DNA from: a virus
Lineage: Duplodnaviria > Caudoviricetes
IMG/VR virus record: IMGVR_UViG_3300009095_000002
Coordinates: 1 to 45,689 of that record
DNA: 45,689 nt
Direction: 5' to 3' (one strand)
Shown: positions 13,767 to 30,510 of the stretch, in pieces
How positions within the stretch are numbered: the first letter of the stretch is position 1
Layout of the letters: each line of letters starts with the position of its first letter
Notes under the pieces: generated by a model
The model's database searches: none
Told to the model about the DNA's origin: nothing
Seen by the model: the letters and a program-made list of their open reading frames with translations, nothing else
Translations under genes and position numbers: made by a program

Positions 13767-13837
13767 TTCCTCCTTGAATCAATGCCTCTCGGAATAAGCA
13801 ACTATCAAAGTTTTTATGCCACTTTGAAAAGGCAACT
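13767..13837 (-). ncRNA. Two tandem AGUUGC..GGCA pseudoknot-like leader motifs
   Basis: AGUUGCC-UUUUCAAAGU-GGCA-UAAAA-ACUUUGA and AGUUGCU-UAUUCCGAGA-GGCA-UUGAUUCAA-GGAGGAA. Confidence 0.6.
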
Positions 13838-13861
13838 TGTAGGTAACTTAAGCGTAGTTTT

Positions 13862-14695
13862 TTAACGGTTTCCAGCAATAGACTTAAGCTGTTCAGCGTT
13901 TTTTATCGCATTTGGATGAACTCGTCTTTCCGTTCCTTGTGGCTGTCCGTTATTTTTTTGATTATTATCGGTGAAGACAGCAGGGTTAACTTTGCCTCCG
14001 TCATTCTTCTTAATAAATCCTTCTTTATCGGCTATGCTTTCGATCGCTTCGGAAAGCGTTAAGAATGCACCTGCCTTGTTGGGATTGGCCAATCTTTTAC
14101 CCTCTGAGTTAAGAACTAAAACTTCGTTCTGATCATCAAAGTCAACTTTAATGCTTTCTTTGATTAGTGAATCTAAGTAATGTTGTTCAGCCTTGGAAAG
14201 ATCTGACTTAAGCTTTGTTTGAACTTTGCTTTTCTCGGTAGCAAGAATATTGTTGATCTTCTCAGTTTTGAATCTGCCCTCGTAATCTGCCTTGGTATCC
14301 TCCAAAGTTTTCTGAAGCAAAGAATTATTGTCTTTATATTCCTGTAGTCTTGCGTTTGCTTTTTCAAGCTTCGCTTGTAACTCTTTAACTGCCTCGTCTG
14401 AACTTTGACCTTGCTTAGACTTTAATTCTTCAATTAAGCTATCTTGCTTTGCCTTTCCAAGCTCTACAATTTCTTCCCACTTCTTACCGTTGATTTCTTC
14501 ACTTGAAAGGCCGAATAGCCTTTTTGCGAGAGTGGTGATTGATCCGGTAATCTTACCAGTAATTTTACTCTTTATCTCGTCGTCATCGTTCGCCTCAGCA
14601 CGGGTAATATATTTTCCTGAAAAACTTTTTTTGAATGCGTCAAGGTCTTTAACGTCTTCAACTCCAAGGTAATCTAATAAATCTTTAAGCTCCAT
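13862..14695 (-). CDS. Capsid scaffolding protein (putative)
   Basis: Charged coiled coil immediately upstream of the capsid gene. Confidence 0.7.
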   Translation of the reverse strand: MELKDLLDYLGVEDVKDLDAFKKSFSGKYITRAEANDDDEIKSKITGKITGSITTLAKRLFGLSSEEINGKKWEEIVELGKAKQDSLIEELKSKQGQSSDEAVKELQAKLEKANARLQEYKDNNSLLQKTLEDTKADYEGRFKTEKINNILATEKSKVQTKLKSDLSKAEQHYLDSLIKESIKVDFDDQNEVLVLNSEGKRLANPNKAGAFLTLSEAIESIADKEGFIKKNDGGKVNPAVFTDNNQKNNGQPQGTERRVHPNAIKNAEQLKSIAGNR

Positions 14696-14696
14696 G

Positions 14697-14945
14697 TTAC
14701 TTCTTATTTTTAGGTGTCTTCTTTGTATTGCTCTCTAATTCTTCTGGTTTGCCAATAATTATCTCTTCAGATGCTTCGAATAGGTCATCGAGGCCTTCTT
14801 GAATTTCCTCATTCACAATTACCTTTTGCTCAACCTTCAAATCCTGAACCTGCCAATCAGATTTTATAAACCAGGAAGCCTTTGTAATGCCTTCCGGAAC
14901 AAATTTTACCTGTCCTTTGCTATTTATAATCCTGACGTTTCCCAT
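14697..14945 (-). CDS. Hypothetical head-module protein
   Basis: 82 aa, basic tail. Confidence 0.7.
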   Translation of the reverse strand: MGNVRIINSKGQVKFVPEGITKASWFIKSDWQVQDLKVEQKVIVNEEIQEGLDDLFEASEEIIIGKPEELESNTKKTPKNKK

Positions 14946-15007
14946 TTTACTCTTCTAAATGTGTAAATTTAACACAATTTAATAAAAAAAATATTAATAC
15001 AAAATTT

Positions 15008-15892
15008 TTAGATGTTACCCTTTTCTTTGTTTCGCTTTATTACCGACGCTGGAACCGACTTTTCAGAGACAGGTAATGGAGAATGCTTACAATTGCGCCC
15101 ACCTGCCAGACTGAAAATATTATCCTTGTTGGTCAGTGAGTTCATACCCTGCCACGGATGGCCACAATTTCCAACTTCTTTACCATCGCCCCAAGCTTCA
15201 ATTTCTTTTCTGTGATAATACTTCCCGGCCCTTTCCAAGCAGAAACACCTAGTGTCATCTATTTTACCCCCAGACCAGCGGTAGAAATCTAAACCTAAAT
15301 CTTTTGCAACATTAGAGGTATATGTTCTATCAGATATTGCGAACCCGTCATAGGCGACTCTTTTAACATGTGAAAGTAATTTCCCGTCTACTTGGTCATT
15401 GCCTAAAATTATCTTTCGCAGGCCTTGCAATGTATCATAATAAGACCCCTCATTCATTACCGCAGTGTTCATTAACTCTTTTAATGGTGTCATTAATGGC
15501 TGTGTAAATGTGTCACCAGTAAGCAGCTCAATTGTATTTCTTTGTGCCTGCCTTATAACTTTTTCGTAAATAGGCTTAACTTCATAATTATTGACTATCC
15601 CATCAAAATACAAATCATTAAGCTTTGCCTGATTCGTAAATTCCCGTGCGTATTTCCTTAATGCAGTTTCATACTGGGGAGAAAAAACTTTATTCTTAAT
15701 TTGAATCTCTATTGATTCAAGAATAGATATATTCTTTTCGGACAAAACAAATTTACCATCAACAGTTTCAAGTTGAGACATAAGCCTTTCAACTTCTTCC
15801 ATGACTTCAGCCTGAAGCGTTTCAGTAGTCTGCTCTAACAGCTTTGGCACTTCATCCAGGCGGTCGAACTTGTTATCTAAAATACTAGCCAT
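15008..15892 (-). CDS. Minor capsid / head morphogenesis protein (MuF-like)
   Basis: YRWSGGKIDDTRCFC...GGRNCKH; follows portal. Confidence 0.75.
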   Translation of the reverse strand: MASILDNKFDRLDEVPKLLEQTTETLQAEVMEEVERLMSQLETVDGKFVLSEKNISILESIEIQIKNKVFSPQYETALRKYAREFTNQAKLNDLYFDGIVNNYEVKPIYEKVIRQAQRNTIELLTGDTFTQPLMTPLKELMNTAVMNEGSYYDTLQGLRKIILGNDQVDGKLLSHVKRVAYDGFAISDRTYTSNVAKDLGLDFYRWSGGKIDDTRCFCLERAGKYYHRKEIEAWGDGKEVGNCGHPWQGMNSLTNKDNIFSLAGGRNCKHSPLPVSEKSVPASVIKRNKEKGNI

Positions 15893-17696
15893 TATCTACT
15901 CCTGATAATATCCTATCTACATCTAAGGTTACAGGCCTAACTTCAGCCTCTTTATCCTTTGCCTTTTGGATCAAAATTTCTTTCTGTTGCTCAACTGGCA
16001 ACGATAAGAAATCAGGATTTTCAACAAGCTCTTCGGCAATGAACATATAAATAGAAGTGTGAAGAATGTCCTCCCAAGCAGCCACAGTTCCAGAAAGTTT
16101 TTTCTGTGCTATATCCTGTGCAGAAAGAGAAATAAGCCTATCCGTTGCAAATGCAATTTCAAATACTTTCGTTGTTTCCTCCTGAGTGCTGAATCTTGTA
16201 TGTAGCCACTCCATTAACAATTGATATATTGCTATGTCTGGAAGGCCATAATCCTTAGCCTTTGAAATTTCCTCTGTTAAGTCGTATTCGCTTCTTATTG
16301 AGAATGTTCTTGGACGTGAAACAACAGGCAGTTTTTCCCCTGTTCCATATCTCATTTGGATAATGCACTTAATAGAGAATTCAAGCAGTTCGAACACCTG
16401 GTTACTGATTGAAAGCAATACAGTAAATTCATCCTCACGGTCAATTATTTTTCCTAATGCTGTTTCAGATCCTTTTGGGTCACTCGTTGAATTATTCAGA
16501 TTCAACACACTTAATGCATCTTGTTTGTTCAGCTCGATTTCTTCACGCAAGAATTTAAGTATATCTGGATTAGGGCTTTCATAACCAAAGAATGGCGGTT
16601 TGAATTGTTCTTTGTCGAATCCGTTTGGAGCCTTAATTTGAACTTTCCCTAAAGGAGAGTTTAAGCTTCTTTTCCCAGTACCTTTACATGATGGGCATTT
16701 TGTGTTATGACCATCAATTAGTAAATACCCATCAATACAACGAGTGCCATTTTCCTCGTATTCACATTCATCCGCATATTCCCAGCCTTTCGGAAACGCA
16801 CTATTGGCCTTTGATGCCTTCAAGTAAGAAGAATCTAGCAATATGTCGTCCATGATCTCAACCGCAGCCATAAAATGGCTTTGGTAAAGAACATCGTTCT
16901 CTTTAGGAATAGGAATAGCCTTCAGCTTTTTACACGGCAAATAACCTAAGTTGTGGGGCCAGAAAATGGCGTATTCAAACCTGTAATCAGTCTTCTTCCC
17001 AACCTGCTTAATTCTCCAAATATTATTTGTATCATAGAATTCAAAAACCAACCCAGTCTTTTCTTCACGGTTCCCGAATGTTACCCAGCTCTTTTCTAAC
17101 AGCTCAATGAGGGCGTAGTTATTCTCAACATATCCGATTATTTGCGGAGAATTGTAAATAACAGATACCGGCTCAATGTATTTTGTTTCATCAATTACAA
17201 TTTCATCGCCCTTCAAAATCACTGGCAGCGTGTACGGCTTATGACACATCAAAGCGTTAGGATCTTTCTCTTTAAGCCTGGTAACTATAGTTTTATAATA
17301 GTCTTCTAATGAGCCATATACAGGATATTCATTCTCAATATACTTTTGAGGTGTTGCCCCGTCAAGCTGTGAATATTCAGGCCACTTTATAGACCAGTTG
17401 GCATCATTCCAAATCCGGTTAACAGCACTGATAAACTTTGACCAGATAGGGAAGGTAACTGTCTTATGATTGCATTTAATGTATTCGAATTCTTCATCAG
17501 TCTGATTAGGCGCACGCATTCGGAACAGCTTTTCAGGAAACTTCCCAATTTCTGAATGCACACAAATCCTTTCAAGGAAATCAACAGACTCCTTATAGAC
17601 CTCTGTAAATTCAGGCTCCTTTTTTCGAGCCTCAGATTCTTTAAATATCGCTATCTTTTCGGATAGAATCTCCTGTATTTGAACATCACTATACAT
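15885..17696 (-). CDS. Portal protein (putative) with Zn-finger insertion
   Basis: 603 aa at the head of the head module; HNLGYLPC, SETALGKIIDRE; CPSCKGTG. Confidence 0.75.
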   Translation of the reverse strand: MYSDVQIQEILSEKIAIFKESEARKKEPEFTEVYKESVDFLERICVHSEIGKFPEKLFRMRAPNQTDEEFEYIKCNHKTVTFPIWSKFISAVNRIWNDANWSIKWPEYSQLDGATPQKYIENEYPVYGSLEDYYKTIVTRLKEKDPNALMCHKPYTLPVILKGDEIVIDETKYIEPVSVIYNSPQIIGYVENNYALIELLEKSWVTFGNREEKTGLVFEFYDTNNIWRIKQVGKKTDYRFEYAIFWPHNLGYLPCKKLKAIPIPKENDVLYQSHFMAAVEIMDDILLDSSYLKASKANSAFPKGWEYADECEYEENGTRCIDGYLLIDGHNTKCPSCKGTGKRSLNSPLGKVQIKAPNGFDKEQFKPPFFGYESPNPDILKFLREEIELNKQDALSVLNLNNSTSDPKGSETALGKIIDREDEFTVLLSISNQVFELLEFSIKCIIQMRYGTGEKLPVVSRPRTFSIRSEYDLTEEISKAKDYGLPDIAIYQLLMEWLHTRFSTQEETTKVFEIAFATDRLISLSAQDIAQKKLSGTVAAWEDILHTSIYMFIAEELVENPDFLSLPVEQQKEILIQKAKDKEAEVRPVTLDVDRILSGVDNG

Positions 17697-17776
17697 TAAC
17701 GTATATTAAATTTAGTTCGTGGCTTAATTGGTCTTGGTTTTGGCTTCCCGCAGGAACCACAAGCTTTATTTTTCAT
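17696..17776 (-). CDS. Tiny basic CxxC peptide (26 aa, not in ORF track)
   Basis: MKNKACGSCGKPKPRPIKPRTKFNIR; TAATG coupling to portal. Confidence 0.55.
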   Translation of the reverse strand: MKNKACGSCGKPKPRPIKPRTKFNIR

Positions 17777-17786
17777 GGTTCTGTTT

Positions 17787-18452
17787 TTAGTTTGGTGTAC
17801 AAATCAAATCAAACTGAGGATCATAAATTGAACCTCCGAAAATATTCTTATAGCTGTAATTGTGCTGAATTAAGAATATGTAAATATCATTTTGTGTTAT
17901 GCCAGCTCTATGCAATGTGAAATCGTTGATTTCAATCAACATTTTCGGCCTAAACTTCTTAATTGTTTCCTCAGCTCCTTCAAGGACCTTCAACTCAAAC
18001 CCCTCAACATCTATTTTAATGAAATCACATCTTTCTAATTCAAGGCTGTCAATGGTCAATGACTTTGTTTTGCCTTTCCCTGGCTTAACATAGGTCATAC
18101 CTACATTGTCATCATATTTAACAAGGACCATTTTGCCTGACGTCTCGCCAACGCATGAGTTGAATAGCTCAGTATTTTTAAACTCTGAAAGGTTATGTTG
18201 TAAGCATTCAAATGCATCCTCATTCGGCTCGAAAGCTAAAACCTTGCCGTGTTTCCCAACTGCATTAGAATAGGCTATAGTGTGGTCGCCAATGTATGCG
18301 CCAACATCTAGTACAGTATCGCCTTGCTTGATATGCTTAAGCACAAGCGGCAACATGTTTTGATCATGGTCAAGCCTTCCGCTTTCCTCAGCCCATTTGC
18401 TTATATGCGTATCGTTTTCAAGAATTGCGAAACCTTTTTGCGTAATCTTCAT
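17787..18452 (-). CDS. FkbM-family SAM methyltransferase
   Basis: VLDVGAYIG, AFEPN, FIKIDVEGFELKVLEGA. Confidence 0.95.
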   Translation of the reverse strand: MKITQKGFAILENDTHISKWAEESGRLDHDQNMLPLVLKHIKQGDTVLDVGAYIGDHTIAYSNAVGKHGKVLAFEPNEDAFECLQHNLSEFKNTELFNSCVGETSGKMVLVKYDDNVGMTYVKPGKGKTKSLTIDSLELERCDFIKIDVEGFELKVLEGAEETIKKFRPKMLIEINDFTLHRAGITQNDIYIFLIQHNYSYKNIFGGSIYDPQFDLICTPN

Positions 18453-18455
18453 AAT

Positions 18456-19148
18456 CTATTTTAAATATTGCTCAATTTCTTGTTTTACTTCTGCAGTTAT
18501 TCCTCCCCAGCTCCAAAATTGCCTAACTGGCGAATATGGTATTTCATCATCTGTATCAACAATCTCGTACCTTTCAGATTCAAAATTTTCAATATATGCT
18601 CCTATTGCGTTAAATTCTGAAAATGATCTATGATCGCAATTCAAAATATATTTTTTAATGTTAGGGAACATATCAACAAGACCAACAAGGCTATTCCTAT
18701 GATATACAATAGGGAGCCTCCGCATATATTCAAAATCCACTTTGAAGCCAACAAATTTCTCAGTAATTTCCTTCCAGCAAATCGCATCACCCACCTTCTC
18801 ATATTTTGTTTTCAACAAAATTGGCTTACCATCGCTGAAGAAATCATTAACATTGCAAGGGTGCTTAATTACACAATCGCTATCTAAGAACATTATAAAA
18901 TCAGCGTCTGAGTGTTCAAATGCGAATATTTTACTGATCTGCTGGCCTAAATAGTCATCATCAAATAATTCCTCAGATATAACTATCTCCTGTGTTAAGT
19001 TGAATGGAATTAAGAGGTGGACCTGATCTTTTGGAATAGATATAATTATTTTTCTAAACCCTCTCAAATGCTTATGTATAGATGACAGGCAATGTGCAAG
19101 CCATTGCAGATCATTTTTATAAGTTCGTATAAATATATCAACTGTCAT
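18456..19148 (-). CDS. GT-A glycosyltransferase-like (DUF6492-like)
   Basis: YLGQQISKI, FLDSD (DxD), FSEFNAIG. Confidence 0.75.
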   Translation of the reverse strand: MTVDIFIRTYKNDLQWLAHCLSSIHKHLRGFRKIIISIPKDQVHLLIPFNLTQEIVISEELFDDDYLGQQISKIFAFEHSDADFIMFLDSDCVIKHPCNVNDFFSDGKPILLKTKYEKVGDAICWKEITEKFVGFKVDFEYMRRLPIVYHRNSLVGLVDMFPNIKKYILNCDHRSFSEFNAIGAYIENFESERYEIVDTDDEIPYSPVRQFWSWGGITAEVKQEIEQYLK

Positions 19149-19840
19149 CTTGTGTGTAATCTAATCTGTTTAAATACGTAGTCGCTTACCTGTTCAGCTC
19201 GTGCAAATTTGGCCAATCCCATTTCAGCTTTGAATATGTCTCCGGTTCTTCTCCACTGGTCTACTGAATATTGAACGTTGTGTTTTTTGTGAAATAAATA
19301 AGGCTCTTTAAGATTCATTACCTTAACCTTATTCACTATTGCCGAATACGGTAGCCAATAATCCCAGAAGCATTGACCAAGAGAAAGTATAGTTTGAGGG
19401 AAAATGTCAATCCATTTATAATTTATAAAAAATCCGTCAAAACCCCGCTCATATACTACTCCTTCAGAATGCGAATTAATAAAGTCTCTTCGGTTCATTA
19501 TGACGACCCCGTCTTCAGAGTATTCCTTTATTTTTTCAACGCTATCATTTTGATCGTCAATAATTATATCAGAATTAATAAGCAGGCTATACTTACTTTT
19601 AGCCTCTTTGATATAGTCAATCAATGCGCTCGCTGTTACATAAGGCTTTCCAAAAATATGTTTTGTATGCCTGAATGTATGAATGAATTTTACATCCTTG
19701 AATTCTTTTTCCAGCAACTCAATTTCTTCAGCAACATTCAAAGATACGACCTCATAGCCCGCCTTAATCCAACTATCAATAGCGATTCTTTGATTTTCGT
19801 AATTCTTATGTCCTGGCGATATAGAAGTAATGGCAATCAT
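19145..19840 (-). CDS. GT-A glycosyltransferase-like
   Basis: INSDI, GFDGFF, LGQCFWDYWL, HKKH. Confidence 0.7.
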   Translation of the reverse strand: MIAITSISPGHKNYENQRIAIDSWIKAGYEVVSLNVAEEIELLEKEFKDVKFIHTFRHTKHIFGKPYVTASALIDYIKEAKSKYSLLINSDIIIDDQNDSVEKIKEYSEDGVVIMNRRDFINSHSEGVVYERGFDGFFINYKWIDIFPQTILSLGQCFWDYWLPYSAIVNKVKVMNLKEPYLFHKKHNVQYSVDQWRRTGDIFKAEMGLAKFARAEQVSDYVFKQIRLHTR

Positions 19841-20697
19841 TTTTTTAACCCAACAAATTTACCCTTGTATAGCCTATGTGATTTGTATAAGTGATTCTTG
19901 TTTTGTGAATTCATTACCTTTTGTAAAATCCTATCATACACTTTGTGCGCGAATGGCTGGACTAATCCAACAGCTCCATGCATCGCCAATATTTGATATT
20001 TTTTGAATAGATCTGACTCCTGAATACTTCTGTTTGGGAAGTAAATAGGATTTAAATTATGATCTGGCAAAACATCCAACTGAGCCATGGTAGCAGAGTA
20101 ATACAACTCATCCGGATGCTGGCTCGACTTTCCCCACATATGCCAGTATTCTTCAGGGTTAAGCCTATTGTTAATATAATTATATTCAACTTTTTTGAAG
20201 AACTCTTTTGTCTTATTTGATCTGTCAAACCACATTATAGAGGTCTGAAGAGCTGGTAAAACTGAATCATCATTTAGGTTAAACTTCTCCCAAATGGTTT
20301 CATTTGTAGCCCACAGGCTATACTGAATTTTTTTATCTTTCTTCCCTGAGTCAATTACCTGAACATACAGGCTTTCACTCTCTAATCTTTCAATTAATCC
20401 TTCAAGGCTATTAATGCAAACCCCATCTACGTCAAGATATAATGTCTTATCAAATGGCGAACGCTCAAACAGTTTTATTTTCGCCAAGCAATTATCTATT
20501 CTCCCCTTTTCGTCCTTCTCAAAATCTATTACCTCGAAAGAGTCAAATATAGTAGTATCAATGTCGTTAATACTGTCAATATCACACAATAAGTGAATAT
20601 TGGCAGCAGGATAAAAATACTTAATTGAATGCGCCATATTGTAAGCATACGCACCATAAGGATTAGACCCGAAACACATTAATAAAATACCAGTCAT
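19837..20697 (-). CDS. Glycosyltransferase (GT8 / nucleotide-diphospho-sugar transferase-like)
   Basis: KIKLFERSPFDKTLYLDVD, HPDE. Confidence 0.8.
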   Translation of the reverse strand: MTGILLMCFGSNPYGAYAYNMAHSIKYFYPAANIHLLCDIDSINDIDTTIFDSFEVIDFEKDEKGRIDNCLAKIKLFERSPFDKTLYLDVDGVCINSLEGLIERLESESLYVQVIDSGKKDKKIQYSLWATNETIWEKFNLNDDSVLPALQTSIMWFDRSNKTKEFFKKVEYNYINNRLNPEEYWHMWGKSSQHPDELYYSATMAQLDVLPDHNLNPIYFPNRSIQESDLFKKYQILAMHGAVGLVQPFAHKVYDRILQKVMNSQNKNHLYKSHRLYKGKFVGLKK

Positions 20698-20712: not shown

Positions 20713-20740
20713 AAAAAAGGCAGGCCGATTAAGGCCCACC
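20713..20740 (-). terminator. Imperfect terminator after tail tube gene
   Basis: GGTGGGCC-N-GGCCTGCC followed by U6. Confidence 0.6.
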
Positions 20741-20743
20741 CGA

Positions 20744-21280
20744 TTAGAAGACACCAACAGGAGCTTCGTATAACACTGGCATAGTCTCTTGCACTGCCTG
20801 TGACCATTTGGCCGTAATAAGGTAGTTTTGCTTCTCCTTATTTGACCTTGGTATCACAAGTCGGGATACAAAGTTTACGCCTCTTTCGATAACTCTAATT
20901 TGCTCTTCCTCGCACATATACAGGACAAGTCCGGCAAATTGTGAAAGATTTAGAAGCCTGTAAAATTCATCGTTGGTTGCGTTAACGTTGAAATCTGTAA
21001 TTTCAACAGTATAATCAAACCCATCAACGATAGTTTCAGCTCCACATGCAGAAGGGTTTTCTCCCTCAACCGGAGAAGGTTCTGGCAATTCAGCCTTGAT
21101 AGGAGAAATTATTTTGTATTTCCCGTCCAAGATTGCAGCTTGCGTTTGCTCTGCGCTGGAAAAGTCGGTAATTCCATGGCCGCTGAGTAAAATAGCAGCT
21201 GCCGAAATTCCACCTTTAGGATAGTAACAATTATTTTTTTCGTGTTCGGTTAGATCCTCGAACGTGCAATCAAATGACAT
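20744..21280 (-). CDS. Major tail tube protein (putative)
   Basis: Acidic 178 aa from MSFDC; own promoter, leader motif and terminator, as expected for a highly expressed gene. Confidence 0.6.
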   Translation of the reverse strand: MSFDCTFEDLTEHEKNNCYYPKGGISAAAILLSGHGITDFSSAEQTQAAILDGKYKIISPIKAELPEPSPVEGENPSACGAETIVDGFDYTVEITDFNVNATNDEFYRLLNLSQFAGLVLYMCEEEQIRVIERGVNFVSRLVIPRSNKEKQNYLITAKWSQAVQETMPVLYEAPVGVF

Positions 21281-21300
21281 AGTAGTTGCATTTTTAATCG

Positions 21301-21340
21301 TTCCCCGCTCTCTGTGATGCCTGACGGGTTGACGGCAACT
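21301..21340 (-). ncRNA. AGUUGCC..GGCA pseudoknot-like leader motif
   Basis: AGUUGCC-GUCAACCCGUCA-GGCA-UCACAGAGA-GCGGGG. Confidence 0.6.
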
Positions 21341-21359: not shown

Positions 21360-21391
21360 CAAAAATACACTTTTTCGAGTATTTACAAAAA
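21360..21391 (-). promoter_or_regulatory. Late promoter
   Basis: TTTTTGTAAA...TATTTTTG; the same TTTTTGTAAA occurs at 30501-30510. Confidence 0.6.
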
Positions 21392-21428: not shown

Positions 21429-21953
21429 ATGAGACTAATTTTTATAATGTTATTTTTTAGCCAGTTATCATTTGGCCAAGTTCAGATCAAAGGGGGAGTA
21501 AATATGTCGCAGACGACCGAATCAAAGTCTAGGATGGGATACCAGTTAGGGGTAGGAAAGGACTTTAAAATCAAAAATTTAATTCTGGTTCCTGAAGCAA
21601 TGTTTTCTTTGAAACGTGCTATGTTCACAGGCCAGGAAATTCACATGAACTACATTGAGCCTGGATTTTTGGTAGGATATGAAAAAAATGATAAGTATAT
21701 TTTTGGCGGGAATTCTCTTTCTGTAAACATCTATTCTAAATCAAAAACAATGATTTCGCCTCGTGAATTTCTTTTCCTTCCAGTTCCGCTTACAAATAAC
21801 ATTGATTGGGTACAAGTTTTCGGATTCGGATATAAGGTTAAGGCAGAGGGAGAGGTGCTATTTTTAGAAGCTCGTGGAAGCTTCGGAACTCTGAATCAAT
21901 ACAGAAAATCAAAAAATATAAGTATTGGAATTGTGGCTGGAATTTATTTCTAG
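21429..21953 (+). CDS. Outer-membrane beta-barrel protein (PorT-like), moron
   Basis: Signal peptide, IKGGVNMS, alternating beta strands, C-terminal GIYF; opposite strand to neighbours. Confidence 0.85.
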   Translation: MRLIFIMLFFSQLSFGQVQIKGGVNMSQTTESKSRMGYQLGVGKDFKIKNLILVPEAMFSLKRAMFTGQEIHMNYIEPGFLVGYEKNDKYIFGGNSLSVNIYSKSKTMISPREFLFLPVPLTNNIDWVQVFGFGYKVKAEGEVLFLEARGSFGTLNQYRKSKNISIGIVAGIYF

Positions 21954-24081: not shown

Positions 24082-26354
24082 GCTCTTAATAACTTAAATT
24101 GAGTTAGCCCTGTAAGCATTCTATACCTCAGCTCTACAACATATCCTCTCTTGTAATTGTCTTCTCCGGAGCTGAATTCTATACACTTATAAGGGCTTTC
24201 TTGCAATTGCTTAAACTGTGTAAATGTCAATGGGGCCGTAAATTCGTAAAACTCTGGAATCCAGATAGGATTATTATCTGAATTGTTAGACGAATCCCAT
24301 TGGTAACTTTCTCCGTCATTCAATATCTCATTATTCCAAGCACCTGAACAATTATCTAATTGCCGTGAAGCCATTACATAATTTCCTTCCCCGTATGTAA
24401 ATTTAATATCTTTCCCCGGATATTTATATACCGAAGGATTAATTACATTGCTTCTTCTAAGTAAATTTCTAAGTGGGGAAATACGTAAATTATAGGCAGT
24501 TTGAGGGCTAATCAAATCCTCTATGTCTGCATAATTCTCATCCTTCTCAGCTATCGTTAATCCGGTTGGATTTCCTGATCCGTCCGTTGATCTATTCAGG
24601 CAAATTATAAAAGTATTGTTATCATACTTATAATCCTCAGTTGAGTTATCTAAATACTTCTTTCTTCTAGTAAATTCAATAGCATACCCAGAGGCAACAA
24701 GGTTACTTAATATTTCATCTGTCTCTCCGATAGTTTTTAAACCTAATGTAAACTGTCTCTTTGAGTTAAATTCATCAATACCATTTATTTCTTCGTTCTC
24801 CCATGTGCTATATCCAATTGTAATATTATTGTAATAATACTCTGTAGCAACCGTCATCTTTATATCAAGATTTGACAACCTGAATATTACTGTATTGTCG
24901 TAGAAGTGATCTTTAGGTTCAATTCTTATTTTGTGGGAATCTCCAATTTTCTCAACACCCATACCCAAGTTGTCTATTGGGTCTAATCCAAAATACAACT
25001 CCTTCATTGAAACAGAATGAGGCTTGTTCTTCTTAGGATCAGTAGAAGTTAATGGGAATTGGCGAATCTGAAGGCCGTTAGTTATCGCCCTGAAAGAACC
25101 ACACCCATTTGAATTGTATGCAACTGGCTCAGAGTTTTTCCGGCCAAAATAATTACTACGGATCGGATCAGGATCATTTGTAATTGACTGAGCCACTATC
25201 GCCAGAGCTTCATGTATTGCAAATACGTTACATTGCGACTCTGGAACAGTACTAGCAACGATAGCATTTATTTGAGTAGTTGTTTCATATACATAATCTA
25301 AATCGAGAAAAACATAAATTGGGTATCCGTCCTCAATCATAGGTGGGTTATCATCCGGAAAGTCAATGTTATTCATGTCATGCCTAAGCCTCACATAATA
25401 CAATGATGGGACAGTAACAGTTTCGCTAAATGTGAATGAAACCGGAACAGGAACAGACGTACTAACACTAGTTTCTGAGGCAATTAAAATACTATCTACT
25501 AATGAATAATTTTCATCAAGAACATCCAAGTAATAGAAATAGCCTTTACCAATAGTAAGAACAGGAGAAAGAAAACTTCCAACATACTGTATTTGTTGGT
25601 ATGAAGTAAAGTTAATAGTTCCTGAAATAGTTATTTCTTGTTCTGCGCCAATAAGATTTTGTAGAATAGCCGAAGATGGGTCGTCGTAAACATAAAATGA
25701 GCTCTGAGAGCCTGGTATATCTGATCCAACTAAATCTAATGGAGGAGAGTGAAGTGTTCCTATTGTTATTTCAACAGTATTTCCTGGTGGATTAGGGCTC
25801 CATTCAGACTGAAAGACAATTTCCTTACTATGCAACGTCATTTGATACGGGGCAAACGAATATGAGTTCATTGGTTCGCCATCAATAGTATTTGTATCTG
25901 TAAGAATAACCTTTGTATCTAATCTACTCTTGAAAGTAGTATACATGCTTACCTGCTCAACATCTGCATAGGAGAAGTCCCGATCCGTGCCGTACGTACT
26001 GAGATTTAAAATTCCCTCAAAGAATGGCTCAAAGTCACAACCTTCTGAAGGTGTACCATAATCGTCTGAATAGTCTATTGAATAATCTAGTGAATCATCA
26101 CCAGGTATGCAACCACATACAGTAAGAATATTGAAGCTTATTTGGCCATCAACTCCGTATTCATCATATATCTTATCGATATATTCTTTCCCAGCACCGC
26201 AGAAGAATTTAACCGGTACATTGCATGAAACGTCAATACCGTGAAGCTCTTTATCACGATTAAACTCAATTACTAAATCTTCCCAACCTACAGGATCATG
26301 CGGTAAAATAAAAGTTCCGTATACCGGATTTGAAAGGGTAAACCTGAAAATCAT
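24072..26354 (-). CDS. Tail tip / baseplate hub-like protein
   Basis: 760 aa directly after the tape measure gene. Confidence 0.6.
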   Translation of the reverse strand: MIFRFTLSNPVYGTFILPHDPVGWEDLVIEFNRDKELHGIDVSCNVPVKFFCGAGKEYIDKIYDEYGVDGQISFNILTVCGCIPGDDSLDYSIDYSDDYGTPSEGCDFEPFFEGILNLSTYGTDRDFSYADVEQVSMYTTFKSRLDTKVILTDTNTIDGEPMNSYSFAPYQMTLHSKEIVFQSEWSPNPPGNTVEITIGTLHSPPLDLVGSDIPGSQSSFYVYDDPSSAILQNLIGAEQEITISGTINFTSYQQIQYVGSFLSPVLTIGKGYFYYLDVLDENYSLVDSILIASETSVSTSVPVPVSFTFSETVTVPSLYYVRLRHDMNNIDFPDDNPPMIEDGYPIYVFLDLDYVYETTTQINAIVASTVPESQCNVFAIHEALAIVAQSITNDPDPIRSNYFGRKNSEPVAYNSNGCGSFRAITNGLQIRQFPLTSTDPKKNKPHSVSMKELYFGLDPIDNLGMGVEKIGDSHKIRIEPKDHFYDNTVIFRLSNLDIKMTVATEYYYNNITIGYSTWENEEINGIDEFNSKRQFTLGLKTIGETDEILSNLVASGYAIEFTRRKKYLDNSTEDYKYDNNTFIICLNRSTDGSGNPTGLTIAEKDENYADIEDLISPQTAYNLRISPLRNLLRRSNVINPSVYKYPGKDIKFTYGEGNYVMASRQLDNCSGAWNNEILNDGESYQWDSSNNSDNNPIWIPEFYEFTAPLTFTQFKQLQESPYKCIEFSSGEDNYKRGYVVELRYRMLTGLTQFKLLRAWE

Positions 26355-29002
26355 TTTCTAATTCCTCCTTTCCTTGTCTTACGTGCAATCTGATCAGCTA
26401 AGTAGTCAGCATTTTTAATGTTTACTGCATTGTTTTTCCTCGTGATACTTTCCAAGTATGATAAATCCACTCCATTATGAGCCAATGATTTTAATATATT
26501 CTCAGCCGTGCTTTGTCTTCTCATCTCAAACGCCTCTTTTTCTGCCTTGGCTCTTCTTAATGCCGGGGCAACATATTTTTTTGAAATATATTTATCAAAC
26601 TTATCCTCGTGTATTGCAGTAATTGCGTTAGCATGCTTTCTAACAGATTTACGATTATGAACAAACTCGCCCCCTTCTAATTCAGCCATTACGCCGCCTT
26701 CTGAATGTCTCTTTCCTTTAACCGGACCACCCTTTTCAAATTTAGGGATAGGCTGAGACCTAACAACAGCCGCTTCAATTGCCCCCTGAGCTGCCACAAA
26801 TGCTGAGAAGGGCAACCCATAAGTTGTAGGGCTTGATGCAACAGCTTTAATTATACCGAAAGCCGTTTCAATGCCGATTTGCGTTAACTTTGCGTTACGA
26901 TCAGCTATAAATTGCTGTCTCTTTAGGGCTGATTCTCTCCGTGCAGCTTCCTGCCTAATTCGCTCCTTCTGAGTTGCGGCAACTTCTTCTGAGATAAGAT
27001 TAGCTCTTAATTGCTTCTCTATGCTTGCGGTTTGAAAGTCTGCGGTTCTCTGTATCTGCTCTCTTTCTGAGTCATACTTAGCTTGTATCCTTGCCGTCTC
27101 GGCCTCGTTATATGCTTCAACGCCTTTTTGAGCCAGATCCGCAACCTGAACCAGCTTCTTAGCATTTTCCTCCCTCTTCTTTCTCTTATCGTCTTCCGCC
27201 TTATTCGCTGCATCTACGTCTAGTTGATATAATTTTTCTTTTGCTTCTAAAATATCACGTTCAGTGTCAAGAGTACTATCGCCATATAACTTCTGAAGCT
27301 GCATTTTAGATTCAAGGTGCTGAATTTCGCCCAATAGATCATCTCTCTGAAATTGCTTCTGAAGATTTTCAATGGCTTTTCTGTCATTGCCTATTTGCTG
27401 CAGTTCGCCAAGTTGCAGCTCCTTAGATAGATTTTCTTCCTGCTTTTTAAGATCTTCAAGCTCTTTGAATCTCTCAACCTTTATTTTTTCTCTGACTTGC
27501 TTTCTGGTTGTTTCACGCTTCTTTTCTTCATTGGCCAGGAATAAGGTATATTCTTTTTCAAGCTCTTCCTCTCTAAGTTTTAAGCTCTTGTATTCAACCT
27601 CCTGGGTTTTGGCGTATCGCTTATACAAGTTAATGCGCCTTTGATTGAAATCTTCGTGAACCTTGATTATTTGCCCCTCTGTGCCATCTTCTAATTTAAC
27701 ACGTCTAACAGCTATGTCTTCAAGAGCCTTAAGTGTATCAAGCTGCTTCTTAAACTCTTTATCAATTTCCTCCTGAGACTTTACGACTGGCTTGCTCTTT
27801 TCAACCAATGATTTATATCTTTCCTCTAACTGTCTAATTACAATAAGATTAGCATTTATAGTTTTTCTTAAATCGTCATTTTTCTTAGTGTACTCTTCAA
27901 CTGTCTTCTGACTGGATGTAGTCGTGAAGCCTAGAGAACTTAACCCCTTATCCCACAGACTTGCATTTTCTTTAGCTGAAACAATCGTTGAGTTATTTCG
28001 GTCAAACGAAACGTCTAATTTGTCGGTCTCTTCTCTTAACCTGGCTATCTCCGCCGTTACCTTGCTCATCTGGTCGGCAATTGGTAATTTGCCCCAGTCC
28101 TCATAAGTATTTAATAGTTCATTGGCTGCGGTATTATACTCACGTTGTGAGGCCTGGAAGTCGTTTTCCTGAAATTCCCTGATAACTCTTACTGCATCAC
28201 TAACTAACGAAATAAAATTGCTAAACCCGTTCGAAGCTTGCCCTCCTATAGTTTTTGCTAGTTGGTCGAACTCATCATCAAGATTTGAAAGTTGACCTCC
28301 AAGGGTTTTAGATATTGCTTCCATTGATCCTGAAACCCCTTGAATATCTCCGAGAGAAAGGATATAGTTCTGAATTGCATCTGACGTAAAATCAACTTGC
28401 GTTTTTATGCCTTTGAACGCAAAAGTAACTTTATCCCCCTCTTTGCTGGCTCTAATATTAAACTCTTTTAAACGCTCAAACTCTCCCGTTTGAGCATCAA
28501 TAATAGCTTCTGCCAACTGGTCGAATGACTTGCCGGTGCTTGATGCCAAATCACCTAACTTTCTAAGCTCTGATATAGTAGGCTTAAACCCTGAGTTCGC
28601 AAGTTTTACAAACGCTTGGGTAAGCTCAGTAACGCCATAAGGAGTAACGGCGGCAAATTCTTGGATGTCTAAAAGTGCCTTCTGTGCAAGACTTGAATCG
28701 CCTAATGTATTTGTAAGTACGGCTTCTAGCTTCTGAAATTCAGCAGTAACATCACGTACGTGCTTAGCATAACTAAGCAGTGTTGACACGGTAAAATAGC
28801 CAGCGATAGCACCACCAACTTTCTTAAGCGTATTATTAAGATTGTTCGATTCTTTCTCAACGTTCTTGAAGCTCTTAACTACATTGTCAGAGGATTTCTT
28901 CGCGGCATCGTCAACACCACGCATCCCCTTTTCAATGTCTTTAAGCTCCTTCTCCAGCTTGTCAATTCTGGCTCCGTACTCAACTATTATTTGATCTGCC
29001 AC
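26351..29002 (-). CDS. Tape measure protein
   Basis: DIQEFAAVTPYGVTELTQAFVKL tape-measure domain; long coiled coil; SQPIPKFEKGG...GGEFV C-terminus. Confidence 0.9.
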   Translation of the reverse strand: MADQIIVEYGARIDKLEKELKDIEKGMRGVDDAAKKSSDNVVKSFKNVEKESNNLNNTLKKVGGAIAGYFTVSTLLSYAKHVRDVTAEFQKLEAVLTNTLGDSSLAQKALLDIQEFAAVTPYGVTELTQAFVKLANSGFKPTISELRKLGDLASSTGKSFDQLAEAIIDAQTGEFERLKEFNIRASKEGDKVTFAFKGIKTQVDFTSDAIQNYILSLGDIQGVSGSMEAISKTLGGQLSNLDDEFDQLAKTIGGQASNGFSNFISLVSDAVRVIREFQENDFQASQREYNTAANELLNTYEDWGKLPIADQMSKVTAEIARLREETDKLDVSFDRNNSTIVSAKENASLWDKGLSSLGFTTTSSQKTVEEYTKKNDDLRKTINANLIVIRQLEERYKSLVEKSKPVVKSQEEIDKEFKKQLDTLKALEDIAVRRVKLEDGTEGQIIKVHEDFNQRRINLYKRYAKTQEVEYKSLKLREEELEKEYTLFLANEEKKRETTRKQVREKIKVERFKELEDLKKQEENLSKELQLGELQQIGNDRKAIENLQKQFQRDDLLGEIQHLESKMQLQKLYGDSTLDTERDILEAKEKLYQLDVDAANKAEDDKRKKREENAKKLVQVADLAQKGVEAYNEAETARIQAKYDSEREQIQRTADFQTASIEKQLRANLISEEVAATQKERIRQEAARRESALKRQQFIADRNAKLTQIGIETAFGIIKAVASSPTTYGLPFSAFVAAQGAIEAAVVRSQPIPKFEKGGPVKGKRHSEGGVMAELEGGEFVHNRKSVRKHANAITAIHEDKFDKYISKKYVAPALRRAKAEKEAFEMRRQSTAENILKSLAHNGVDLSYLESITRKNNAVNIKNADYLADQIARKTRKGGIRK

Positions 29003-29285
29003 GGTTATTAATTTGCTCTACAGTGTACTTTAGTAATGATAAATATTGCCGTGTTGTGTATCTTCTTATTCGCTCTATTTCAGCAGGACTCCCACTTGCT
29101 AACCAAAATATTTCCTCTTCATCATGCTCTCTTGACTTTACAAGCTCAACTTTGAAATAATTGATTTTATTTGTGTCTCTTTCGCCTTCAATTGAACTAT
29201 CGACTCCTGCCAAAATTCTTGAAATTCGCTCTCTAACGATTTTAAGAAAGGCAACACATCCGTCAACCTTGCTTTGTAAAAAAAA
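28980..29285 (-). CDS. Tail assembly chaperone T segment (putative -1 frameshift product)
   Basis: -1 frame is open from the T8 run at 29278-29285 to the stop at 28980. Confidence 0.5.
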   Translation of the reverse strand, partial: FFLQSKVDGCVAFLKIVRERISRILAGVDSSIEGERDTNKINYFKVELVKSREHDEEEIFWLASGSPAEIERIRRYTTRQYLSLLKYTVEQINNRGRSNNS

Positions 29286-29758
29286 TCGTACAGCCCCTCC
29301 TTGCTGTCTTTGCGGAATTGCTCTACCTTATCTGCATGGATATTCTTGTCAATGACTGCCGGGTCTTCATCTTCTCTGATATACTTAAATGCAACCATAT
29401 CAAACATTACATCAGGATGAAGCCATATTTTAGATCTTGCCTCTAGCTCGTTTATCAAATGGCCGATTACTGCCACGTCTGGCCTTTTGCCGTTGTTTAA
29501 TGCGGCCTTAACTGCGATTATAAAATCTTCCACATACGAATCATCCAGGCCAAATTTAACCCCCATTAGTCGTCTCTGAATTTCCTGTGTTCTTACATGA
29601 GGCAAATCCAAATCCTTGTCAGGGCTGAAATATCTCCTACCTTCAGAATCGACAAACTGAACTTTCATGTTCTCAAACCCGGCACTGGTTGACTGTTCAG
29701 TAAAGTATATCTTCAATATCTGTTTCCTGAACAGGCGGTAAAACAGCTTAATTATCAT
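29138..29758 (-). CDS. Tail assembly chaperone (putative G)
   Basis: Upstream of the tape measure gene; contains GAT TTT TTT TAC. Confidence 0.55.
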   Translation of the reverse strand: MIIKLFYRLFRKQILKIYFTEQSTSAGFENMKVQFVDSEGRRYFSPDKDLDLPHVRTQEIQRRLMGVKFGLDDSYVEDFIIAVKAALNNGKRPDVAVIGHLINELEARSKIWLHPDVMFDMVAFKYIREDEDPAVIDKNIHADKVEQFRKDSKEGLYDFFYKARLTDVLPFLKSLESEFQEFWQESIVQLKAKETQIKSIISKLSL

Positions 29759-30068
29759 AATGAATTTTATTGTAAATAAATAGATTTACTCCAGAAGAGG
29801 CAATAATAACAAATGGACATAACAGCAGGCTATATAGAGTCGGCTCTGCCAATACCCAGTAAATAATTGACCCCCAGAATGAGGCATAGCATACAACGCA
29901 ACCAATTATAGGATTGTAAATAAATCGTAATTTATGTTCCTCGTGAAACGTTTCATTCATCCAGGTTCTGAATGGAGACAAAACATAACCTTCACTTGAG
30001 ATAAGAGCAAGTCCATTACAGAAGAGTGAAATGAATAATATTTCTAAGAGTATATTAAGCATCGACAT
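29748..30068 (-). CDS. Membrane protein with CxxC (DUF1360-like)
   Basis: Three hydrophobic segments; PIIGCVVCYASFWG. Confidence 0.65.
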   Translation of the reverse strand: MSMLNILLEILFISLFCNGLALISSEGYVLSPFRTWMNETFHEEHKLRFIYNPIIGCVVCYASFWGSIIYWVLAEPTLYSLLLCPFVIIASSGVNLFIYNKIHYDN

Positions 30069-30426
30069 CCATTTTAAGTACCCAAGTTGTAGCCTCTAAT
30101 CCGTGAACATCTTCGAAATAAACGCCTATACAATCATACTCTAAATCGCCTATTGTGACAGGCAAAACATTATGATCACCATCGTAAACAGTTATTTCAT
30201 AGTAAGAGTCTTTGTTGTAGAATTCTCCGCTTGGATCTCTCAAGTTAAGTATAACCAATCCGGTGTCTTCATTCGCTGGAATTGTCTGGTCACATTGATA
30301 TCCGGTTGATTTATTTACAACTCTTATATTCCCGAAAGGCTCAGGAAATACTATGGGGATAGTGCCTAAAATTAGGTAATCTAAACACGTAGGAACTTTT
30401 TGCGCTATTTGACAGATACAGGACAT
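30055..30426 (-). CDS. Hypothetical structural protein
   Basis: First gene after the late promoter; acidic, Cys-rich N-terminus. Confidence 0.65.
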   Translation of the reverse strand: MSCICQIAQKVPTCLDYLILGTIPIVFPEPFGNIRVVNKSTGYQCDQTIPANEDTGLVILNLRDPSGEFYNKDSYYEITVYDGDHNVLPVTIGDLEYDCIGVYFEDVHGLEATTWVLKMDVDA

Positions 30427-30440
30427 TTGGCGTTTGGTTT

Positions 30441-30510
30441 ACCTCCTTATTATCTGCCTGAGAGTGGGCAACTATCGTAAATATAATAATTTGCGTATAA
30501 TTTACAAAAA
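30441..30510 (-). promoter_or_regulatory. Late promoter followed immediately by AGUUGCC..GGCA leader motif
   Basis: TTTG-N19-TATATTTA (30478-30508); AGUUGCC-CACUCUCA-GGCA-GAUAAUAA-GGAGGU (30473-30441). Confidence 0.6.

Follow-up and report, generated by a model that had tools for sequence, protein, structure and literature searches.

Candidate H-type pseudoknots in the late-gene leaders of a phage and their possible role in raising gene output

A short RNA motif, AGUUGCY followed by GGCA, recurs in the leaders of late genes of this phage. Which fold does this RNA take, does it belong to a known family, and what could it do for the genes behind it?

Motif copies and their genes in the window

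A search for AGTTGCY-N6-16-GGCA on both strands of the whole stretch of DNA analysed (45,689 bp, hereafter the window) gave four matches against 0.36 expected, and 0 of 100 shuffles reached four. The bare word AGTTGC was not enriched in the window (21 counted, 20.5 expected). All four copies lie in intergenic gaps, 5′ of minus-strand genes and on the coding strand, which bears out the preliminary description of sense-strand copies in late-gene leaders. The spacing between the two arms ranges from 8 to 12 nt. The copies form the first stems (S1) of units A to D (Table 1).

Table 1. Positions of the units, the genes that they lead and neighbouring elements in the window
Feature	Position	Strand	Description
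AGTTGCY..GGCA matches	13803-13783, 13837-13817, 21340-21318, 30473-30455	-	pattern search
Unit A	30441..30473	-	S1 UGCC 30470-30467 with GGCA 30458-30455
Unit A, candidate S2	30464-30461 with 30446-30443	-	CUCU with GGAG; loop-to-flank complementarity
Promoter-like site TTTG-N19-TATATTTA	30478..30508	-	Bacteroidota-type; directly 5′ of unit A; pattern match
Gene A	30055..30426	-	123 aa, MSCIC...; between large terminase gene and tape-measure region
Unit B	21303..21340	-	S1 UGCC 21337-21334 with GGCA 21321-21318
Unit B, S2	21328-21324 with 21308-21304	-	CCCGU with GCGGG; loop-to-flank complementarity
Promoter-like site TTTG-N18-TATTTTTG	21360..21389	-	5′ of unit B; pattern match
GCAACUA	21283..21289	-	just 5′ of tube start codon; complements UAGUUGC 21341-21335, the S1 5′ strand
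Tail tube protein gene (gene B)	20744..21280	-	178 aa; start ATG 21280 set by homologs
Intrinsic terminator-like hairpin and T-run	20718..20741	-	right behind tube gene; 9 pairs, 6 G-C
Unit C	13805..13837	-	S1 UGCC 13834-13831 with GGCA 13820-13817
Unit C, S2	13827-13821 with 13811-13805	-	UCAAAGU with ACUUUGA; swap-test score 7.0
Unit D	13770..13803	-	S1 UGCU 13800-13797 with GGCA 13786-13783, one G-U
Unit D, S2	13794-13787 with 13777-13770	-	UUCCGAGA with UCAAGGAG; interrupted by 2x2 internal loop
Major capsid protein gene	12699..13742	-	347 aa, HK97 fold
Intrinsic terminator-like hairpin	12672..12689	-	right behind capsid gene

The capsid gene product was modelled with a pLDDT of 72.7 and had 116 PDB matches at E<=1e-3, the top ones being phage capsid proteins. 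The product of gene B has a tail-tube fold (model pLDDT 76.6), and its top Foldseek matches were phage and tailocin tube proteins (probability ~1, E ~1e-3). Searches with the gene A product gave no family match, and a homolog was found only in the related genome G001. The 145-nt capsid leader is the only part matched by contigs of three other runs, both of its sides diverging. A HTH / sigma-70 region 4 protein is also encoded in the window (5840-6424).

Promoter-like sites were called with a consensus that we take to be of the Bacteroidota type, and in the window this pattern was not above chance (6 matches against 5.05 expected). Unit A starts 4 nt past its TATATTTA box, with its S1 7 nt past it, and copy B starts 22 nt past TATTTTTG. 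The tandem C/D pair has no -7 promoter box of the A/B type upstream.

The preliminary description had read the complementarity between each loop and the sequence downstream as within-genome covariation for an H-type pseudoknot. The complementarities are present exactly as it gave them. Four loops in one genome, however, prove no covariation, since chance alone often gives 4-bp matches. As a control on the second helix (S2), each hairpin loop was scored against its own 3′ flank and against flanks swapped between loci. In the window, unit C scored 7.0 with 7 bp, a value reached by 0.4% of swapped flanks; unit B scored 4.5, reached by about 8%; and units A and D scored 3.5, reached by more than 17%. 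Within the window the second helix is thus beyond chance for unit C only, so that the covariation claim stands for this unit and is weak for A, B, and D. The S2 of unit A is weak alone, having 4 bp of which one is G-U. Nested minimum free energy (MFE) folds of the window units were no better than those of shuffles (z from +0.8 to -1.35).

Unit C has loops of 3 nt (L1), 0 nt (L2), and UAAAA (L3). L3 is 8 nt in unit A, 9 nt in unit B, and UUGAU in unit D, and the start codon follows the S2 end by 16 nt (ATG 30426), 23 nt (ATG 21280), and 27 nt (ATG 13742), respectively. We considered the GGAG(G) partners as ribosome-binding sites and rejected them: their distance from ATG is 16-27 nt, and the ribosomes of Bacteroidia are described as blind to the Shine-Dalgarno (SD) sequence (PMC6847099, PMC9976891).

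Pseudoknot fold in the leaders of relatives

The relatives comprised 52 distinct leaders, of major-capsid (36) and tail-tube (16) genes. Among the 345 GC-containing 4-bp hairpins of these leaders, an S2 score >=6 was found with 12.8% of own flanks and 1.6% of swapped flanks, and a score >=5 with 24.6% and 5.8%, respectively. For hairpins of the UG..CA type, 19 of 83 paired with their own flank, against 1.7% with swapped flanks. These leaders had no S2 excess on the antisense strand (1.5% with own and with swapped flanks), and a G-U pair is present in the S2 of 39 of 56 strong units. The test of S1 kept UG..CA and S2 constant; the two inner pairs were complementary with their own partners in 28 of 42 units and with swapped partners in 18%, and 11 S1 sequence types occur among the relatives. 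Covariation in homologs, which had been called for earlier, is therefore seen in both stems. The swap tests establish the proposed H-type pseudoknot as the predicted fold of the sense RNA, a compact unit whose stems covary among relatives.

The predicted plan of the unit consists of an S1 of about 4 bp, usually UG..CA, whose loop holds the S2 5′ strand, followed by an A-rich loop 3 of 5-6 nt and the S2 3′ strand, S2 being 5-9 bp long. Loop 3 is 61% A, compared with 35% in the leaders, and its modal length is 5-6 nt. The loop sequences are wholly different among 33 listed units; the recurring features are UG..CA and the A-rich L3 alone. The density of strict units is 0.71 per kb in sense leaders, compared with 0.16-0.19 per kb in other sequence, and 30 matches fall in leaders, 19 of them ahead of capsid genes and 4 ahead of tube genes. 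Under an objective rule (S2 score >=5), a knot was called in only 26/36 capsid and 9/16 tube leaders, and in those failing the rule the S2 helix is shorter or the fold is a different one, visible only by eye.

The orthologs of the window units vary in the same manner. At unit C, S2 is changed on both strands in L037 (UCAAA/UUUGA), L001 (AUCAAA/UUUGAU), and L043 (UUUCUC/GAGAAA). The S2 of unit D is an uninterrupted 8-bp helix in L040 (UCUUUAGA/UCUGGAGA) and is UAAUCC/GGAUUA in L043. In the tube-gene leaders S1 is kept and S2 is altered on both strands (UCUCCC/GGGAGG in L043, UAUGCU/AGCGUA in G001). The G001 ortholog of the unit A site has two units at the same position, behind the same TATATTTA box. 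A search of G001 for GTTGC-N5-16-GGCA gave 7 matches, all on the coding strand, compared with 0 and 1 in the backwards-read control. Six of them are in the orthologous capsid, tube, and gene A leaders, one capsid unit being repeated in the terminal repeat; the seventh (663-677) has no leader assigned.

Within each of three genomes of the window's clade (the window, G001, and L043), S1 is identical at every site and S2 differs. Outside the clade, the copies in most genomes differ in S1, as in L022 (CGCG, UGGC, and CGCC) and L028 (CAGC, UGGU, and AUAGC).

The units are single ahead of tube genes and tandem ahead of capsid genes. The knot ends about 19-30 nt ahead of the start codon, with A/U-rich sequence between. 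In tube leaders this distance was 19-23 nt in 5/5 strict units, and in capsid leaders it was 19-24 nt in 8/22, many others having a further unit or hairpin nearer to ATG; the first units of tandem pairs are 46-71 nt from ATG. In the relatives a Bacteroidota-type promoter, called with the same assumed consensus, is often close upstream, the first knot being 11-86 nt past the -7 box by the strict rule and about 5-33 nt past it by eye.

At site B, GCAACUA and UAGUUGC could form an alternative helix that would close the tube leader. The MFE fold of this leader with the alternative helix was -17.1 kcal/mol (z -1.35). An equivalent helix of a perfect 10 bp is present in G001, and none was found in the tube leaders of L043 and distant relatives.

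Comparison with known RNAs

The earlier statement that the motif belongs to no named family agrees with our Rfam searches. Rfam 15 gave 0 matches in the window at gathering score and 3 in the whole window at E<=10, none of them on the units. With the 136-nt capsid leader as the query, all matches at E<=10 were at chance level (10-18 bits), and eight loci of relatives (67 kb) had no match on their leaders. The units are thus an RNA fold absent from this catalogue.

The units have their shape in common with the preQ1-I riboswitch, in which a short first stem, an A-rich tail along it, and a 3′ end paired with the loop make up a very small H-type knot. They differ in their long S2 and in the lack of conserved loop nucleotides and of an Rfam match; the ligand-contacting loop nucleotides conserved in preQ1-I were not found in the 33 listed units, and the led genes are those of capsid, tail tube, and a 123-aa protein, with no queuosine/preQ1 association. 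HK022 put RNA is a pair of stem-loops, not a knot, and belongs to early operons. Like the units, it is a cis-acting phage RNA just past promoters with more than one copy per genome. The units, however, are knots in late-gene leaders with terminators directly behind the led genes, and only A and B, not C/D, are near promoters. Frameshift-type H-type pseudoknots are also compact coaxial two-stem knots with an A-rich loop 3 over a short GC-rich S1, and tandem arrays such as the tobamovirus upstream pseudoknot domain are likewise built of repeated modular units. These knots lie in coding regions or 3′ UTRs of eukaryotic RNA viruses, whereas the present units lie in 5′ leaders of a DNA phage.

In the T4 gene 32 leader, as described in passages of PMC3014915, a pseudoknot lies 67 nt ahead of the start codon and an A+U-rich stretch comes after it; RNase E cuts the transcripts at -71, these being the most stable T4 mRNAs. 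The leaders of T4, T2, and RB69 gene 32 resemble ours in having an H-type pseudoknot in a phage 5′ leader and then an A/U-rich stretch to the ribosome site, which spans 16-27 nt to the start codon in the window. RNase E cleavage of the polycistronic T4 transcripts falls immediately 5′ of the knot, and the promoter-less C/D site could work likewise. A search for sequencing runs that contain the present DNA listed no RNA run. The gene 32 leader precedes the gene of an ssDNA-binding protein that binds its own leader, whereas the units here lead capsid, tail tube, and gene A; the SSB gene of the window (43510-43911) had no motif copy in the whole-window search. Here, moreover, there are one to two units per leader and three sites per genome, and no sequence relation to the gene 32 leader was seen.

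Possible function of the units

The preliminary description listed an antiterminator, a translation enhancer, a stabiliser, and a protein- or ligand-binding switch, and of these the evidence favours a stabiliser or an enhancer. Our tentative reading is that the units act in cis to raise gene output, the knot being a leader cap that would stabilise the mRNA and keep the ribosome site open. It would cover the 5′ flank of the site where ribosomes land, behind the primary 5′ end or behind an upstream endonuclease cut, and such a cut would be needed at the C/D site because it is promoter-less. In either position the knot may hinder 5′-end-dependent attack by enzymes of the RNase E/G and RNase Y types, and little A/U-rich RNA would be left exposed; the most abundant virion proteins would then have longer-lived and more highly translated mRNAs, with processed T4 gene 32 mRNA as the model. 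RNase E/G and RNase Y are encoded in a Bacteroidota genome carrying a related prophage. RNase_J_C (PF17770) was not found in G002, one host-like genome whose completeness is not established, and the B. thetaiotaomicron control was equally without match. A simple 5′-to-3′ exonuclease roadblock is unlikely in G002, because no RNase J C-terminal domain was found.

Some observations count against a leader cap. A protective hairpin is most effective at the very 5′ end, and many knots are not there, since the distance from the -7 box varies. Units A and D have a weak S2, and the nested folds did not exceed shuffles. The constancy of S1 within the window's clade is not required by a purely structural role, and a role in translation would account no less well for the narrow range of knot-to-ATG spacing.

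Such a role could be ribosome docking, which we consider possible if doubtful: placed some 20-25 nt ahead of the start codon, the knot would serve as a binding site for the 30S platform or protein S1, bring ribosomes to mRNAs in an SD-blind host, and replace the SD sequence. The 19-23 and 19-24 nt distances are in line with this, as are the targets, which are the most abundant virion proteins, and the host class, since PMC6847099, PMC9976891, and PMC13000453 indicate that Bacteroidia ribosomes skip SD pairing and that mRNA structure and A-rich positions tune initiation. However, no loop sequence is conserved as a docking surface, and docking leaves tandem copies unneeded, the first of each pair being 46-71 nt from ATG. 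It seems distinctly unlikely that phages of SD-blind Bacteroidota generally recruit ribosomes to their most needed genes with such mini-pseudoknots, as an uncatalogued cassette in which a compact triple-helix knot, placed about 20 nt before ATG, docks 30S like a tiny IRES. An operator for a trans-acting phage or host RNA-binding protein, repressing or timing late structural translation as with gp32, is also unlikely. The AGUUGCY..GGCA common to all copies per genome in the window's clade, with S2 differing, would suit a protein that recognises a specific sequence; a knot and then an A/U-rich leader is also the architecture of the T4 gene 32 operator in passages of PMC3014915; and competition of the site B S1 with the leader-closing helix in two genomes makes a switch possible. 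This sharing of S1 nevertheless fails in most other genomes (L022, L028), the analysis identified no candidate for the RNA-binding protein, and the motif is absent from the SSB gene.

A put-type processive antiterminator, in which the nascent knot modifies RNA polymerase for terminator readthrough, is very unlikely. The units lie just past promoters at A, B, and in most relatives, capsid genes have paired units, and genes continue past the capsid terminator. Strong terminators directly behind the capsid and tube genes, however, read as promoter-knot-gene-terminator modules, which sits poorly with antitermination; the C/D pair has no nearby promoter, put has two stem-loops, and the knot-to-ATG spacing would be left without explanation. 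It is highly improbable that the motif is due to chance or is an operator or promoter element acting at the DNA level. TGCC..GGCA is an inverted repeat, and the words CTACGC and GCGTAG stand beside units C and B, but the arm spacing varies, the G-U pairs and the antisense control indicate RNA, and S2 covaries. A small-ligand riboswitch of preQ1-I-like architecture, with its short stem, A-rich tail, and tail-to-loop pairing, is extremely improbable, given the absence of an Rfam match even for the 136-nt query, the fully variable loops, an S2 of up to 9 bp that should fold without ligand, and the structural genes that are led.

If the units are real, whether as a leader cap or in another role, they would represent a new, widespread class of cis-acting RNA, small modular pseudoknots that mark capsid and tail tube messages in a large group of Bacteroidota phages from soil, compost, and water. 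They would add one more family to RNA catalogues and could supply compact parts, 30-40 nt long, with which to control expression in Bacteroidota. They would also offer a testable handle on how very high late-gene output is reached in hosts that ignore Shine-Dalgarno sequences, through mRNA stability, ribosome recruitment, or both.

The motif and the genes that it precedes

Our analysis showed four copies of AGTTGCY-N6-16-GGCA on the minus strand of the window, all in the sense orientation, against 0.36 expected, and four were reached in 0 of 100 shuffles. The word AGTTGC alone is not enriched in the window. As the preliminary description had proposed, each of the four sits in a gap between genes, upstream of a coding sequence: unit A in the leader of gene A (a 123-aa ORF), unit B in the tail tube leader, and the tandem units C and D in the capsid leader. 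No copy is present at the SSB gene. A fifth AAGTTGCC word, in the gap before a 95-aa gene, has no GGCA partner within 16 nt and could be either a copy that has decayed or a chance occurrence. The word CTACGC(TT) occurs 20–30 nt upstream of unit C, both in the window (~13858-13851) and in the relative's locus L037 and G001, a 44-kb relative; at site B, the window (21355-21348, minus strand) and G001 have the reverse-complementary word (AA)GCGTAG, placed after the −7 box and before the unit.

Coordinates of genes and other features of the window
Feature	Position	Strand	Remark
Fifth AAGTTGCC word	588-581	−	
95-aa gene	248-535		
Repressor-like gene	1900-2325	+	PHROGs
Integrase	2670-3944		PHROGs
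Gene after promoter-like copy	5144-5545		
~30-nt promoter-like copy	5620-5651	−	ATTTTGAAATA-R-TTTTGCAAATTCAAAA
HTH / sigma-70 region 4 protein	5840-6424		
~30-nt promoter-like copy	~6471-6502	−	ATTTTGAAATA-R-TTTTGCAAATTCAAAA
Endolysin	7309-7755		PHROGs
Capsid gene	12699-13742		347 aa; HK97 fold from model
Portal protein	15885-17696		PHROGs
Methyltransferase and two weak glycosyltransferase-like genes	17787-18452, 18456-19148, 19837-20697		between tube and portal
Outer-membrane beta-barrel ORF	21429-21953	+	PF13568, E 2.8e-8
Tape-measure protein	26351-29002		PHROGs
Large terminase subunit	30515-32812		PHROGs
Small terminase subunit	32796-33278		PHROGs
Replication genes	38-45 kb		PHROGs
SSB gene	43510-43911		

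Nearly all genes of the 45,689-bp window, which is the entire virus record, are carried by the minus strand. The gene after units C and D had no match in the family search, and the model of its protein (pLDDT 72.7) resembles HK97-fold capsid proteins (116 PDB chains at E ≤ 1e-3). The true start of the gene after unit B is ATG 21280; its 178-aa product was modelled with a pLDDT of 76.6 and matches phage and tailocin tail-tube proteins (probability ~1, E ~1e-3), including Sf11, monocin MttP and lambda V. For gene A, family searches found no match and the Atlas gave only leads below its bar; homologs were found at 0 IMG/VR loci and, among 5 records, in G001 only. The beta-barrel ORF, one of only two plus-strand ORFs matching a family, lies between the tail genes and the tube promoter and looks like a moron. 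The interval from tube to portal is an unusual site for methyltransferase- and glycosyltransferase-like genes.

Units A and B are preceded by sites matching the pattern TTTG-N-TAnnTTTR, which we take to be the Bacteroidota promoter form; across the window 6 such sites were found against 5.05 expected, i.e. not above chance. No such site was found at the tandem pair C/D, which begins ~25 nt after the preceding gene's stop codon. Most of the relatives' promoters were missed by the strict two-box pattern. A terminator-like hairpin stands directly 3′ of the capsid gene and another directly 3′ of the tube gene, and these are the two strongest on the minus strand. Both ~30-nt copies in the table contain a TTTG..TAnnTTTG promoter-like site, precede the HTH / sigma-70 region 4 gene and the 5144-5545 gene, and have no knot.

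Search of Rfam 15 gave no match on the units in the window (gathering mode; whole window at E ≤ 10), in line with the preliminary description, in which the motif was not recognised as a named family. None was found on the 136-nt leader (E ≤ 10) or on 67 kb of relatives (E ≤ 1) either, and a full-text search of the literature found, among the papers listed, no relevant description of a capsid-leader pseudoknot in Bacteroidota phages.

Evidence for the pseudoknot in the window and its relatives

The four hairpin loops had been described as each complementing their own 3′ flank, i.e. as covarying within the genome in the second stem (S2) of an H-type pseudoknot. Only at unit C does this pairing exceed chance: its 7-bp S2 is rare among controls with flanks swapped between loci (0.4%), whereas an S2 as good as that of units A and D (score 3.5) is seen in more than 17% of swapped controls and one as good as that of unit B (4.5) in ~8%. 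A loose pseudoknot descriptor (S2 of at least 4 bp) is satisfied at ~85 positions on each strand of the window and is therefore worthless alone. Nested MFE folding, which is not informative on knots, found nothing unusual in the window units (z +0.8 to −1.35). The case from the window alone is thin, and it is the relatives that decide.

We found 57 capsid protein homologs, and gathered capsid loci from IMG/VR (35), metagenomes (7, the window itself among them) and one Bacteroidota genome. A scan of IMG/VR with one protein found nothing, and INPHARED gave no match by DNA (>10 kb) or by capsid protein. Nearly all loci have, within the 180 nt 5′ of the capsid gene, a single unit or a pair of units built alike but differing in stem sequence, and at the 16 loci of tail-tube homologs one such unit follows a TAnnTTTG box.

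The stems were examined by swap and permutation tests; the short variable units could not be aligned in structural register by MAFFT, and a covariance model is unable to hold crossing pairs. The predicted S2 was borne out by these tests: among 345 hairpins of 4 bp with two or more G-C pairs, taken from 52 distinct leaders, the loop paired with its own 3′ flank at a score of at least 6 in 12.8%, versus 1.6% with swapped flanks, and at a score of at least 5 in 24.6% versus 5.8%. For UG..CA hairpins the figures were 19 of 83 and 1.7%, while the antisense strand of the 52 leaders gave 1.5% with own and with swapped flanks alike. Of 56 strong units, 39 have a G-U pair within S2. When UG..CA and S2 were kept constant, the inner two pairs of stem 1 (S1) were complementary in 28 of 42 units versus 18% of swapped partners; S1 is of 11 types, and of the 14 units that failed, several represent terminators or true units in overlapping registers.

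Strict units occur at 0.71/kb in sense leaders versus 0.16–0.19/kb in coding, antisense or other intergenic DNA, and 19 of the 30 leader matches lie before capsid genes and 4 before tube genes. Knots with an S2 score of at least 5 were found in 26/36 capsid and 9/16 tube leaders; the remaining leaders (e.g. L004, L007, L008, L014-L019) have, as judged by eye, shorter S2 or other hairpins. As the sequences are kin, none of the counts in these tests represents independent events. A general descriptor, whose background is high, found at least two knots in 18/36 leaders versus 4.6 expected and at least one in 32 versus 20.5. A scan of IMG/VR with a tandem DNA pattern was rejected: the estimated ~7,800 stretches are about the estimated chance number, and a second complete unit was present in 8 of the 120 loci retrieved, all 8 resembling coding repeats.

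The complete 44-kb record of G001, whose capsid protein is 52% identical, has 7 matches to GTTGC-N5-16-GGCA, all on the coding strand (backwards-read control: 0 and 1). A tandem pair precedes its capsid gene, one unit of which recurs in the terminal repeat; a second tandem pair, following the TATATTTA box that is also found in the window, lies between the large terminase gene and the ortholog of gene A; and one unit is upstream of the tube gene. These account for six matches, and the seventh is at 663-677. In G002, a Bacteroidota genome with a related prophage (L043), the L043-type variant has 5 matches: 3 in the prophage, one antisense in a host efflux-adaptor ORF and one without leader-like context. 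S1 is constant at each site of the clade (UGCY/GGCA) and S2 has changed on both strands, at unit C (UCAAAGU/ACUUUGA, AUCAAA/UUUGAU, UUUCUC/GAGAAA), unit D (an 8-bp helix in L040, UAAUCC/GGAUUA in L043) and unit B (CCCGU/GCGGG, UCUCCC/GGGAGG, UAUGCU/AGCGUA). We conclude that this is a real, conserved and uncatalogued pseudoknot leader element, the function of which we only infer.

Three other sequencing runs yielded contigs whose match to the window is confined to the 145-nt capsid leader (13716-13860); there they show 5–8 differences, located in loop 3 (L3) or in A-runs, and they diverge in the flanks on both sides. This leader is either more conserved than the neighbouring genes or moving as a module. 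In contigs from 4 DNA runs only the lengths of L3 and the A-run change, together with one L3 substitution; no RNA run was among those listed for this stretch. In a further record, G003 (L190-L192, ~31850-31866, minus strand), the −7 box TAACTTTG is followed after 4 nt by the start of a gene resembling gene A (MSVCTPC...). No knot is present, and the mRNA is probably leaderless.

Anatomy and spacing of the unit

The unit is laid out as 5′-(G)K-UGNN-L1-S2a-NNCA-U/A-rich L3-S2b-3′, with an S2 of 5–9 bp, an L1 of 0–6 nt and an L2 of 0–2 nt, so that the two stems are able to stack. L3 is 61% A versus 35% in leaders and has a modal length of 5–6 nt; by analogy with known knots, its A-rich strand may run along the short GC-rich S1. 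The distance from the last knot to the ATG is 19–23 nt in 5/5 strict tube units and 19–24 nt in 8/22 capsid leaders, the remaining capsid leaders having first units of pairs, or another hairpin nearer the ATG. The GGAG(G) strand ends 16 nt from the ATG in unit A and 27 nt from it in unit D, and both are therefore stem strands rather than ribosome sites; Bacteroidia ribosomes in any case do not respond to SD sequences (PMC6847099, PMC9976891, PMC13000453). In three capsid leaders (L002, L011 and L035) a further hairpin, the third, is present ~10–30 nt before the ATG. It has the form CCUC(C)..GGAGG, and its stem contains an SD-like GGAGG 11 nt upstream of the start codon, the host of these phages being presumably SD-blind.

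At site B, UAGUUGC (21341-21335, minus strand), the 5′ strand of S1, is complementary to GCAACUA (21289-21283) before the tube ATG. The equivalent helix in G001 (L049, 9851-9873 region) is a perfect 10-bp one, in which A-U replaces a U-A pair next to the core; it was not found in L043 or in distant relatives. Site B could thus switch between the knot and a helix closing the leader. A short out-of-frame upstream ORF (ATG CAA CTA CTA TGT ...), starting at 21291-21289 (minus strand), overlaps the tube ATG in the same leader.

Possible function of the element

The closest described element is the leader of T4 gene 32, where a pseudoknot 67 nt 5′ of the start codon is followed by an unstructured A+U-rich stretch (PMC3014915). 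That transcript is processed by RNase E at −71 and belongs to the most stable T4 mRNAs, and its knot is, according to the review, perhaps the sole viral pseudoknot in translational autoregulation (PMC3014915). Here, in contrast, the led genes are those of capsid and tube, not SSB.

A knot capping the leader of the capsid or tube mRNA would protect the message and so increase expression, and at the promoter-less internal C/D site processing would be needed to expose it. The T4 precedent, the C/D site and the tandem copies are consistent with such a cap, and the RNase E/G and RNase Y encoded in G002, the one host-like genome tested, count for it, whereas the varying distance from promoter to knot counts against it. 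Also counting against it, RNase J was not found in that genome by its RNase_J_C domain (PF17770; a B. thetaiotaomicron control likewise had no match), so an exonuclease roadblock is unlikely in that host-like genome. The tight spacing to the ATG weighs against the cap too, in that it would suit docking of the ribosome just as well, and we regard docking as possible but doubtful. Binding of a protein to the knot as an operator appears rather unlikely, although three genomes of the window's clade each have one and the same S1 at every site and the alternative helix of site B, with its perfect equivalent in G001, lies beside the ATG. Antitermination is improbable, as it fits poorly with terminators directly after the led genes. 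A DNA-level signal or chance is very unlikely, and a riboswitch a shade more so. Our tentative preference is for the leader cap, a cis-acting element that may boost expression of the virion proteins made in greatest amount, chiefly by protecting their messages.
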